A DNA stretch of 57,666 bases, the filler included, from Diploschistes diacapsis (lineage: Eukaryota), in the NCBI GenBank assembly GCA_023645945.1. It is 4 parts of 4 records of this genome, joined end to end, with 100 filler letters (N's around TTAATTAATTAA, not from the genome) between each part and the next. Parts side by side here need not be neighbours in the genome. Positions count along the whole stretch, not along the records: positions 1 to 8,542 come from JALAIB010001136.1; 3 more parts are not named here. One strand, given 5' to 3'. The translations under genes and the position numbers were made by a program. The number at the start of each line of letters is the position of its first letter. Positions within the stretch are counted from its first letter, which is position 1. The notes under the pieces are model-generated. The model was not told where the DNA came from and did not search any database. It was given only the letters and a program-made list of their open reading frames with translations. Shown one piece after another: positions 556 through 2,394 of the stretch.

Positions 556-2394
556 ATGAGTAACGTTGCAGACCACCAGCAGGCCAGCTTCATCAACGAC
601 GGCGCCCGCGTTGGCGTCCAGGCTGGCCAGTACAACGCATACGGGGACACTAATGTCCAATACCACATCACACAATCTGGTAAGTCTATCCACATTCTAC
701 TACGGAAAGAATGCGAATCCTGAACTGCACTGAACAGAACAAAGATCCCGGCTTCGTCCTTGCTCCACCGTACCATTCCGCCGAGACAGCGACTTCGTCT
801 ACCGCGATACACTTGCGCAGATAGAGAGGCGACTTATCCAGCCTGCCGCTCGGGTGGCACTTGTCGGTCTGGGAGGCGTTGGGTAATCTCAAGCGAGAAA
901 TATCCTAGAGGAACGCTGAAAGAGTAAAGAAAGTCACAAGTCGCAATCGAGTATGCCTACCGCGTTAGAGATGCATCACCCGAAACATGGGTGTTCTGGG
1001 TGCATGCGAACAGTATGACCAGAATCGAAAAAGGCTATAGATGGATCGCTGAAGCAGCCAAACTGTCTGGGCGGGAGGATCCAAGGGTGGATATTCTACG
1101 CCTTGTCCGAGCATGGCTGAGGGATGAGTCGAACGGAAAGTGGACAGTGATTGTGGACAATGCTGACGACCTAAGCCTTCTCTCTAATCTTTCTGAAGGT
1201 ATGCAAAGTGAACGTTGCTTGTCCAACTCCGCAGCTGATGGGTTGCCAGACGTTATGCCAAAGTCATCAAATGGATCCGTTCTTATCACCTCGCGAAATC
1301 GAGAGGCAGCCCTCAAGCTTGTGGGCGACTACGACAATATGGATGGAGAACCCGCGCGGAGCCTTTTCCGACAAAAGCTTAGGGATAACGCAGACGGTGC
1401 AGACGTCCTGGAGCTGCTGCAGAATCTAGATTACTTGCCGCTGGCAATCAGCCAGGCTGCAGCGTATATTCGACAAAGAAAGCCGCGGGTGACAGTTTCA
1501 AAGTACTTAGGAGACATCCGGGGAAGCGAAAAAATAATGGGCAGTCTGCTAAACGTGGCTATTCGAGATCGACGTAGAGATGGTAAGCATCGAACCCGAT
1601 ACTTGCCACATGGCAGGTATCGTTTGAGTATATCCGGGCAGAGCGGCCATCCGCTGCGAGACTGCTGTCGTTGATGAGCTTTTTCGACCGACAAGGGATT
1701 CCTGAAGAGTTTCTTACGAAGTATGATAATGACGATAGCGCGGAATGTTTTAACGAGGAGATTGAAATGCTGCGCGGTTTCTCTCTCGTGATGGTAAGTG
1801 TCGACGGTGCAGTTTTCGAGAGAAATCGGCTGGTGCAGTTCGCGACAAGAAAATGGCTGGAAGAGCGTAAAGAGCTGGAGAGATGGAAAGAGACAATCAT
1901 GGCGGAGGCTTTTCCGTGGGGCGCATTCGAGAACTGGAAGAAAATGTCAGATACTGTTCCCGCATGCCGAGCTGGTACTAGCTTATCGGCCTATCGATGA
2001 GGATTTCTTGCAACAGTGGACAAAAGTGCTTACGAATGCTGGCTGGTACGCTCGAGACCAAGCAAACTGTGGCGAGGCAGAAACAATGAACGGACAGGCG
2101 CTGGAGTGGAGAGAAAAGGTGCTGGGAAAGGAGCATCCCTCGACGTTGACGAGCGTCGGCAATCTAGCATCGATGCTCCGATATCAGGGCAAGTACGGAG
2201 AAGCAGAAGCGATGAACCGGCGGGCGTTGGAGGGGTATGAAAAGGTGCTGGGGAAAGAGCATCCCGACACGTTGATGAGCGTCGGCAATTTGGCATATCT
2301 ACTGCATCGACAGCAGAACTTCCGAGAGCGCTGCAAGCATTGCGACAGCCACTTCGCAAACGATGACGGTCGACCATGGCTGCGAGCACACTGA
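556..2394 (+). pseudogene. Fungal NLR (N-terminal amyloid-like motif + NB-ARC + TPR), frameshifted and truncated
   Basis: Exon1 556-679 (MSNVADHQQASFINDGARVGVQAGQYNAYGDTNVQYHITQS). Intron 680-737 (GTAAGT..CAG). Exon2 738-882 (…PCSTVPFRRDSDFV…RVALVGLGGV). Intron 883-929. Exon3 completes Walker A GLGGVGKS, then WVFWVHA, Walker B WTVIVDNADD, GSVLITSR, YLPLAISQAAAYI. Frameshifts near 1586 (before ASNPILATWQVSF) and near 1944 (ENWKK/CQILFPHA). Two 42-aa TPR units at 2071-2322. Confidence 0.88.
2071..2322 (+). repeat. Two tandem 126-bp TPR-encoding repeats
   Basis: GEAETMNGQALEWREKVLGKEHPSTLTSVGNLASMLRYQGKY followed by GEAEAMNRRALEGYEKVLGKEHPDTLMSVGNLAYLLHRQQNF. Confidence 0.85.

Follow-up and report, generated by a model that had tools for sequence, protein, structure and literature searches.

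Amyloid templating from an NLR to a separate effector is established for the HET-s and PP systems. In the NWD2/HET-S pair, a motif at the N terminus of the NLR is matched by a motif at the C terminus of a HeLo protein, and the two genes are adjacent and divergent. The PP system is represented by PNT1-HELLP-SBP (PMC5485727, PMC7885112), and its motif has a G-phi-Q-phi-G core (PMC7885112); the corresponding Pfam model PF17046 has been described as 'PP (misnamed SesB)' (PMC12261475). A further N/Q/G-rich motif at NLR N termini, sigma (NACHT_sigma, PF17106), is about 40 aa long according to a review (PMC5485727). The class NLR39 was defined computationally by Wojciechowski et al. (2022, PLoS Comput Biol, PMC9815663), which labels it "PP", and in a full-text literature search only that paper and its preprint were relevant to NLR39. 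The "PP" label reflects the G-hydrophobic-Q-hydrophobic-G pattern. According to the same authors, a fraction of 0.80 of the NLR39 instances passes ArchCandy, and their Table 1 gives 0 neighbours for the class.

Here we examined a stretch of 57,666 nucleotides from Diploschistes diacapsis, referred to in its entirety as the window; all of its features described below lie on the plus strand. Our main reading, to which we assign a probability of about 0.7, is that the exon at 556-679 encodes the N terminus of an NB-ARC/TPR NLR of a probably lichen-forming ascomycete and carries a 24-aa amyloid-type motif of class NLR39, with a signalling role presumed for intact relatives and the copy in the window most likely a pseudogene. 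The 124-nt exon begins with the ATG at 556-558, encodes the 41-aa peptide MSNVADHQQASFINDGARVGVQAGQYNAYGDTNVQYHITQS plus one base and thus ends in phase 1. Intron 1 (680-737, 58 nt) has the donor GTAAGT, a CAG acceptor and CTGAAC branch-like sites. Exon 2 (738-882) encodes a linker, the conserved segment STVPFRRD.DF.YRD and the start of Walker A (GLGGVG), and intron 2 (883-929, 47 nt, GTAATC...AAG) interrupts a Walker A glycine codon. When 556-679, 738-882 and 930-1580 were joined by script, a single open frame of 306 codons resulted, reading ...STVPFRRDSDFVYRD...GLGGVGKSQ..., which bears out the proposal of the first-pass annotation that this exon is spliced in frame through canonical introns to Walker A. 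Both introns are predicted, intron 1 from its consensus sites, the reading frame and the homologues P0005 and P0006, with which the spliced product is colinear by eye, with no gap between the exon 1 end and Walker A. For intron 2, a paralogous DNA contig in run X1 lacks 47 letters at 884-930, at most one base off the intron.

The peptide is also found in two database proteins, P0001 and P0002 (E 1.8e-11 and 2.8e-9 among 5.8 billion sequences), which share 78% and 73% identity with it and whose reading departs from that of the window directly after ...HITQS, at the exon end and donor site. In total, eleven other database proteins conserve the peptide with the M at the identical position in all of them, and the annotated NCBI proteins P0125, P0134 and P0135 begin with it. 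This recurrence at the N termini of other NLRs argues that the peptide is not the product of a chance open reading frame. It had been described as rich in N, Q, G and aromatic residues and free of proline, and its composition agrees (N+Q+G 14 of 41, six F/Y/H, no proline). The motif is the sole N-terminal module of the NLR, short and N/Q/G-rich, and is accompanied by no enzymatic or pore-forming domain.

Judged by its alignment columns, the peptide belongs to the class NLR39 already in the literature. PSN61266.1, a NACHT-WD40 NLR referred to here as P0125, is an NLR39 instance at residues 12-35 according to S1 Table of PMC9815663, and in an ungapped alignment of nine N termini over 35 columns (A3) these residues occupy the same columns as F12-Q35 of the window (FINDGARVGVQAGQYNAYGDTNVQ, 24 aa, 589-660). 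Consistent with this, a profile built from the window peptide, P0001 and P0002 (A1), which did not include P0125, matched residues 1-37 of P0125 with an E value of 2.0e-06 (43.4 bits) among 1.84 billion representatives. The earlier suggestion of an undescribed motif does not hold up, as this relative had already been catalogued as NLR39 and grouped with PP. Columns F12, N14, Q22, A23, Q25, G30, V34 and Q35 are invariant in A3. The G-V-Q-A-G core noted previously is present at residues 20-24; across the family its consensus is [GA]-[VI]-Q-A-[GS], the first G being replaced by A in 4/9 members and the second by S in 2/9. The supplementary files of PMC9815663 that were searched contained no exact 6-mers of the motif.

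The window shares with NLR39 a 24-aa motif extending from about residue 8-12 to 31-35, a short NLR N terminus and an ascomycete host. We compared 12 of the 20 NLR39 rows in the supplementary tables of PMC9815663. In these 12 the first motif residue lies between 8 and 12, and half of them (6/12) have the span 12-35 seen in the window. They comprise nine NACHT and three unannotated NODs, whose repeats, if any, are WD or ANK, and contain neither NB-ARC nor TPR domains nor a lichen-forming fungus, whereas the motif of the window and of P0002 sits on an NB-ARC(-TPR) receptor and the closest NOD relatives of the window gene are from lichen fungi. Another difference from the class members is that the copy in the window is frameshifted. 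NLR39-type motifs thus occur on NB-ARC scaffolds (the window and P0002) and on NACHT-WD40 scaffolds (P0125, P0134, P0135 and the metagenome locus L001), so that recurrence at NLR N termini, which had been proposed as a check, was found on two NOD types. These observations extend a computationally defined class to NB-ARC/TPR receptors and to probably lichen-forming fungi. Three other candidate relatives, P0124, P0130 and P0131, were rejected: they are internally repeated, and their matches cover no more than 10-12 or 28 positions of the profile.

The gene in the window is an NLR of predicted NB-ARC/DUF7779/TPR architecture, with the Walker A sequence GLGGVGKS in its spliced product. The first frame of exon 3 (930-1586, KSQVAIEYAYR ... 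RDRRRDGK) encodes an NB-ARC-type NOD with 58-60% identity to lichen-fungus NLRs that match PF00931; this piece by itself yields only AAA_22 in Pfam (E 0.17) and does not reach PF00931. It is followed by the NOD-associated DUF7779 region at 1587-1943 (PF25000, E 2.1e-07), which is open only in the second frame, and by TPR_10/TPR_12 repeats at 1946-2330 (TPR_10, E 3.2e-25, three stretches, 126-nt period), within which a direct repeat, D1, pairs 2053-2170 with 2179-2296. The closest NOD relatives are proteins from metagenome-assembled genomes of lichen fungi. The first-pass annotation was right to identify an NLR (NB-ARC relatives, DUF7779, TPR_10) without an enzymatic effector domain, but it had overlooked frameshifts in the downstream part of this NLR.

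Two frame changes interrupt the gene. At 1584-1587, between ...RRDGK and ASNPILATWQVSF, one base is missing by comparison to homologues; the TWQ anchor at this site is present in 9/10 of the homologues queried and all nine read continuously across it, and tblastn with P0005 concurs. At 1938-1945, between ...ENWKK and CQILFPHAE, there is one extra A in a run of A, with the anchor again present in 9/10 homologues and continuous in 9/9. Contig X3 aligns without a gap over 1368-1685 and hence carries the first frame change as well; the letter at 1941, at the second site, is absent from both X2 and X3, which are related DNA samples. Stretches of 18 nt and 9 nt found in X2 and the homologues are missing from the window as in-frame deletions. 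The TPR frame ends in a stop at 2392-2394, and a degenerate C-terminal tail at 2331-2445 consists of pieces resembling the end of P0005 scattered across three frames, as judged by eye and with less weight than either frame change. Taking together the two frame changes, both within the NOD region, the in-frame deletions and the degeneration of the tail, we regard the receptor gene as most likely a pseudogene, in which the motif has probably been retained only because the decay is recent.

At the level of profiles, our tests did not assign the core to the Pfam PP, sigma or HET-s motifs. At E<=10, a threshold to be read with the HMMER filters in mind, which discard most matches above about 0.1, PF17046 did not match the window peptide, nor did it match P0001, P0002, P0123 or P0126-P0129 at E<=10. 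Neither the sigma model PF17106, the HET-s/HRAM model PF11558 nor the RHIM models of Pfam matched the window peptide at E<=10. The sole Pfam row for the peptide at this threshold was PRS7_OB, with 13.1 bits, under its own cut-off; when A3 was searched against PDB sequences, there were 0 matches at E<=10, and the ESM Atlas gave no usable match for the peptide. The comparisons with PP and HRAM suggested at the outset came back empty for this peptide with the Pfam models, as did the likeness of its QYNAYG part to sigma, although in being N/Q/G-rich and located at an NLR N terminus the peptide resembles that motif. By the G-phi-Q-phi-G description of PP (PMC7885112) the G-V-Q-A-G of the window conforms to the pattern. 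A single alignment extends across the core, and in it the spacing differs from that of PP by 1 + 2 residues.

The closest NOD paralogues do carry a recognizable PP motif. P0005, P0006 and P0008 match PF17046 at residues 2-26, their scores of 25.7-25.9 bits exceeding the cut-off of 23.2, and they have the tail V.V.YHITQS in common with the window. An hhalign comparison of A1 with A2 (PP) gave a probability of 77.9% (E 1.8e-05, 29 columns), a value that depends on the shared tail; A3 compared with A2 gave 18%, over 14 tail columns only. With the tail removed, core-only comparisons with the PP motifs of the nearest NLR paralogues gave 1.7% and 0.9%, which is not significant, and we have withdrawn the A1-A2 result as a demonstration of in situ descent from PP. 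A tentative idea that we nevertheless consider possible is that, within one clade of lichen-fungus NB-ARC/TPR receptors, the same first exon bears either a PP core (P0005, P0006, P0008) or an NLR39 core (the window, P0001, P0002), while its start, an aromatic anchor at residues 10-12 and the linker V.V.YHITQS are kept. NLR39 might then have been born from PP, or swapped for it, in situ, opening a separate, non-cross-seeding channel to HeLo effectors, for which the L001 pair described below is suggestive, and the gene in the window would represent a recently abandoned receptor of this channel. The presence of PP-type and NLR39-type cores on close scaffolds with a common linker makes this clade convenient for studying how amyloid specificity diversifies. 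A structure prediction for a four-copy complex of the peptide, run without an alignment, scored 0.02 against a mark of 0.32, a value to which we give no weight in either direction.

With respect to an effector, the motif occurs just once in the window, both by tblastn (next best E 0.41) and with the HMM (best 6.2 bits, E 1). We found no effector-type Pfam domain among the 50 long ORFs scanned in it, and, by comparison to PNT1-HELLP-SBP (PMC5485727, PMC7885112), no HELLP- or SBP-like neighbour at the locus. Only 555 nt precede the ATG, so a divergent partner could be situated just outside. At the metagenome locus L001, a HeLo gene (PF14479, E 2.9e-53) lies upstream of, and divergent from, an NLR39-type NACHT-WD40 NLR whose start is roughly 540 nt away, an arrangement like that of NWD2/HET-S. 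When 2196 six-frame ORFs were scored with the motif profile, the 31-aa last exon of this HeLo gene was the top non-self match, aligning without gaps to profile positions 14-35 with 7.8 bits (E 0.34 for the 2196-ORF set). Its score was reached by 12/5000 shuffles of the tail, and by 9/5000 with a leave-one-out profile; a pairwise BLOSUM shuffle test between the NLR motif and the HeLo tail of L001 was marginal (176/3000). Unlike in HET-S, the motif occurs once in this tail rather than as a double repeat. The recurrence at effector C termini for which the first-pass annotation proposed to look thus has a candidate in one HeLo tail, at L001, and none within the window. A HeLo/HeLo-like protein with the motif at residues 236-257 is, moreover, the listed partner of an NLR39 NLR in S6 Table of PMC9815663. 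The L001 pair, one locus with a modest score, supports amyloid signalling for the NLR39 family and supplies a pairing with a neighbouring HeLo gene that Table 1 of the 2022 survey (PMC9815663) does not record for the class.

These data bear on several other explanations. That the NLR in the window is intact and functional, its frame changes being assembly errors and its partner being encoded beyond the upstream edge or at another genomic site, appears improbable to us. Both frame changes are single-base length differences in short homopolymers (GG and AAAA), and they cancel, the frame at 931 being the same as that at 1954; the X1 contig that confirms both is the sole identical independent assembly and may stem from the same reads. 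Moreover, a partner placed as at L001 would fall beyond the edge of the window. Against this, the frame would be lost for about 119 codons between the two sites (the conserved TWQ.SF and DUF7779 segment). X3 comes from a different sample and is ungapped across the first site, and the second site, where X2 and X3 both depart from the window, resembles a real polymorphism. Assembly errors in homopolymers would also leave the missing 18 nt and 9 nt and the tail spread over three frames to be explained. X2 itself bears further damaging changes, namely Y29C, the P-loop change G88D, the substitution G680C, which removes the intron 1 donor, and the loss of one base each at positions 851 and 1521.

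We also consider it unlikely that this conserved N-terminal extension serves some purpose other than amyloid signalling, for instance as a tag for interaction or regulation, and resembles G-x-Q-x-G through its composition. The lack of PP, sigma, HET-s, RHIM and PDB sequence matches at E<=10, the non-significant core-only comparison with PP and the variability of the core glycines would fit such a role, and NLR39 itself is known from computation alone in Table 1 of PMC9815663. However, the motif is located on two unrelated NOD classes at an equal distance from the start, which is how a signalling module behaves; a C-terminal copy is colinear in the HeLo protein of L001 and another is listed in S6 Table of PMC9815663, and the ArchCandy fraction given there for NLR39 points the same way. 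The notion that the exon is unreal, a chance ATG ORF ahead of an NLR whose true start is elsewhere, is effectively refuted by conservation. Several NOD homologues in the databases do begin only at ...KSQ, but these are ORF calls blind to introns. A chance ORF would account neither for a peptide kept in eleven other proteins with an identical M position and placed at the start of P0125, P0134 and P0135, nor for divergence that begins exactly at the donor site or for the colinearity of the spliced product with P0005 and P0006.

We return to a most likely decayed NB-ARC/TPR receptor with an NLR39 motif. By analogy with the characterized systems, ligand-driven oligomerization of the intact relatives would gather their N-terminal motifs, which could take up a cross-beta fold; this fold may template the matching C-terminal motif of a separate HeLo-type pore-forming protein, and the templated protein would kill the cell. 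The gene in the window is probably an ordinary, dead member of a described family and adds little that is new. Because it is probably dead, it is a poor entry point for experiments, for which the intact P0125, P0134 and P0135 and the L001 pair are better suited.

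The first exon of the NLR gene had been described in the first-pass annotation as a 41-aa PP/RHIM-like amyloid signalling motif. The stated coordinates, sequence and composition (N, Q or G at 14 of 41 residues, zero proline) proved correct. Exon 1 (556-679, plus strand, 124 nt) begins with the ATG at 556 and encodes MSNVADHQQASFINDGARVGVQAGQYNAYGDTNVQYHITQS plus one base. Intron 1 (680-737, plus strand, 58 nt) has a GTAAGT donor at 680 and two CTGAAC-type branch sites followed by the terminal CAG, and intron 2 (883-929, plus strand, 47 nt; GTAATC...AAG) lies within the codon of the glycine that precedes the Walker A lysine. 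Joining 556-679, 738-882 and 930-1580 by script gave a single open frame, reading ...STVPFRRDSDFVYRDTLAQIERRLIQPAARVALVGLGGVGKSQVAIEYAYR... By eye, the spliced product aligned without gaps to the annotated P0005 and P0006, two of the closest NB-ARC paralogues, from the end of exon 1 to Walker A. In a paralogous contig from DNA sequencing run X1, 47 letters are missing at 884-930, consistent with a genuine intron 2. We infer that both introns are spliced. With the peptide as query, a word-indexed search over 5.8 billion proteins gave two candidates and two proteins, P0001 (E 1.8e-11, 78% identity) and P0002 (E 2.8e-9, 73% identity). Both retain VQAGQ[YF]NAYGDTNVQYHITQS and diverge directly past ...HITQS, and P0002 picks up again at ...STVPFRRDNDF...GLRGVG, as expected if an intron-blind gene caller had read through an intron. 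Judged from these sequences, the exon-1 peptide is not a product of chance.

In Pfam, the downstream pieces of the gene matched DUF7779 at E 2.1e-07, and three stretches matched TPR_10 (E 3.2e-25). Exon 3 alone as a query returned 1952 proteins at E<=1e-10 from 5441 candidates; the best matches come from lichen-fungus MAGs (Wetmoreana, Letrouitia, Teloschistes and Brigantiaea; 58-60% identity), and several of the best homologues contain PF00931 NB-ARC. Among sequencing runs, the one that best matches the window DNA carries a lichen-metagenome label. Taken together, these matches indicate that the gene encodes an NB-ARC/TPR NLR, probably of a lichen-forming ascomycete. Two further NB-ARC proteins, P0034 (Cenococcum, residues 1-55) and P0040 (Pleomassaria, residues 1-75), have N/Q/G-rich N termini with a ...SVTA.[IV]VQQG[ST]GNA... 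pattern and no match to the amyloid-motif models in Pfam; this pattern may be a further signalling motif on the same NB-ARC scaffold.

The reading frame was checked with two anchor strings, each queried in ten homologues and present in nine of the ten. RRDG.ASN.I.ATWQISF is uninterrupted in all nine homologues with this anchor; the window changes frame at ~1584-1587 (plus strand), between ...RRDGK and ASNPILATWQVSF. ENW..C..LFPHA is uninterrupted in nine of nine, and the window shifts in an A run at ~1938-1945 (plus strand), between ...ENWKK and CQILFPHAE. A contig from X1, which may be the source data, matches the window identically. A contig from run X3, a different sample, is gapless over 1368-1685, so the first lesion is common to X3 and the window. 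Both X3 and a further run, X2, lack one letter at 1941, and the second lesion is thus private to the lineage of the window. X2 keeps stretches of 18 nt and 9 nt that are present in homologues and absent from the window; it also carries the substitutions S11R, Y29C and G88D (P-loop), has lost the intron-1 donor G (G680C), and has one-base deletions at 851 and 1521. In the tail of the window gene, pieces resembling the P0005 C terminus are, by eye, spread across three frames. We read the locus as inactivated before the window, X2 and X3 lineages diverged, with decay ongoing; what doubt remains comes from the short homopolymers in which the two window lesions fall. The window copy is most likely non-functional now.

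The window peptide had no match to the PF17046, PF17106, PF11558 or RHIM models in Pfam at E<=10, and the proposed likeness to the sigma motif (PF17106) was not borne out. A profile of the peptide with P0001 and P0002 (A1) found 11 proteins at E<=0.001 among 1.84 billion representatives. Eight are N-terminal instances with M at the motif start (P0001, P0002, P0123, P0125 and P0126-P0129), and the other three (P0124, P0130 and P0131) are repeat proteins, which we rejected as relatives. P0124 and P0130 are short proteins made up of many SQSPQAGQFNSY copies with variable spacers between them; they resemble a translated repeat-spacer DNA array and are not related to the NLR motif. A search with nine ungapped N termini (A3) reduced 926 candidates to ten proteins and added P0133, P0134 and P0135, all N-terminal. 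P0125, P0134 and P0135 are annotated as Pleosporales NACHT-WD40 NLRs. The predicted recurrence of the motif at NLR N termini was found. In P0126-P0129, P0132 and P0133, intron-blind ORF calls stop right after ...IVQ (residue 35), which suggests an exon boundary six residues before that of the window's subgroup.

P0125 is PSN61266.1, for which S1 Table of an earlier survey lists the amyloid-like motif NLR39 at residues 12-35 (PMC9815663); in the A3 alignment these coincide exactly with window F12-Q35. By this alignment the window motif is already catalogued, as NLR39, and the suggestion that it was undescribed falls away. The first-pass interpretation holds in part, in that the motif is of the amyloid type found in NLRs. 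Table 1 of the same paper gives NLR39 as 24 aa in 20 NLRs, annotated 'PP', with an ArchCandy pass fraction of 0.80, zero neighbour matches, two effector matches and no experiment, and the authors liken its G-hydrophobic-Q-hydrophobic-G pattern to PP (PMC9815663). The occurrence of NLR39 on an NB-ARC/TPR scaffold appears to be a modest novelty, since NB-ARC is absent from all of the rows covered, 12 of the 20 for NLR39 (PMC9815663); the probable lichen-fungus host is also new.

The PP motif itself is represented by PF17046, 'PP (misnamed SesB)' (PMC12261475). Its cut-off of 23.2 bits is passed at residues 2-26 by P0005, P0006 and P0008 (25.7-25.9 bits), three of 120 NOD homologues among the matches listed. 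These paralogues demonstrably share their exon frame and linker with the window, and the tail V.V.YHITQS is common to all four. In hhalign against their PP N termini (A2), A1 aligned with 77.9% probability (E 1.8e-05, 29 columns) and A3 with 18%, over only 14 columns, in the tail; BLASTP of the window peptide against the P0005 N terminus aligned the tail alone. With the tails trimmed, the core probabilities were 1.7% for A3 and 0.9% for A1. These values and the tail-only BLASTP alignment argue that the window core is PP-like through pattern only. The core could have originated by a swap or by divergence in place. A further, modest novelty is that sister scaffolds with a common linker carry either a PP or an NLR39 core.

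We searched the window for a partner of the receptor. Neither tblastn with the peptide (runner-up E 0.41) nor the A3 HMM (best other match 6.2 bits, E 1) found anything but the peptide itself, and HeLo, SesA, lipase, PNP_UDP and patatin domains were absent from the 50 long window ORFs scanned, whose domains are all of a housekeeping kind (Zn-cluster factor, Dak1/2, M24 peptidase, aldo-keto reductase, SNF2 helicase, glutathione synthase and others). Only 555 nt lie 5' of the NLR ATG within the window. The nearest downstream gene (3789-5542, minus strand) is Kelch-repeat-like (PF24681, E 3.4e-09, under its cut-off); in its product, a Ser/Ala-rich segment and then a hydrophobic stretch come after the Kelch-like part, and the protein is of no NLR-effector type. 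Just upstream of the NLR, AT-rich DNA contains a 45-nt direct repeat (80-124 and 224-268, 89% identity), and summed X1 depth is raised, repeat-like, at 300-337 (181.7 versus 71.5). Upstream of 429 the X2 contig and the window diverge, and at 554, directly before the ATG, X2 has 76 additional letters. The promoter or partner side of the NLR may have undergone a mobile-element insertion or rearrangement. Three pairs of 44-N runs with 12 bases between them lie at the joints of the window's records, spaced regularly ~8.6 kb apart as in masking or scaffolding (8543-8586/8599-8642, 17182-17225/17238-17281 and 25798-25841/25854-25897).

The motif had also been expected at effector C termini, and this held at one locus outside the window, with none in the window. 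A metagenome scan identified L001, a 4593-nt contig with an NLR (2163-4591, plus strand) composed of an NLR39-type exon (2163-2267), NACHT (NPHP3_N, E 7.2e-32) and WD40 repeats. Its divergent neighbour is a HeLo gene (685-1626, minus strand; PF14479, E 2.9e-53), the two start codons being ~540 nt apart. The last HeLo exon encodes 31 aa (780-688, GGATNTWNNYNSKIMHQGGISHVHGDQHIQF) and is preceded by a 48-nt GTAAGT...TAG intron. Among 2196 six-frame ORFs of L001 and the window, this tail was the top non-self match to the A3 profile (7.8 bits, E 0.34), aligned ungapped to positions 14-35, and 12 of 5000 shuffled tails reached its score. With the NLR peptide of L001 itself left out of the profile, the tail scored 8.5 bits, reached by 9 of 5000 shuffles; a cruder pairwise shuffle test of the NLR motif against the tail was marginal (176/3000). 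S6 Table of PMC9815663 pairs the NLR39 NLR XP_018036993.1 (residues 12-35) with XP_018036994.1, a HeLo/HeLo-like homologue in which the motif spans residues 236-257. N-terminal NLR motifs are described as templates for the amyloid fold that a homologous motif adopts at the C terminus of HeLo/HeLo-like cell-death proteins (PMC5485727, PMC7885112). By analogy, the NLR39 motif would adopt a cross-beta fold and template the matching motif of its HeLo partner, which would then cause cell death. Our data establish for NLR39 an N-terminal position in NLRs, portability between NOD classes and one HeLo pairing. The L001 gene pair adds, modestly, a HeLo neighbour for the NLR39 class at one locus.
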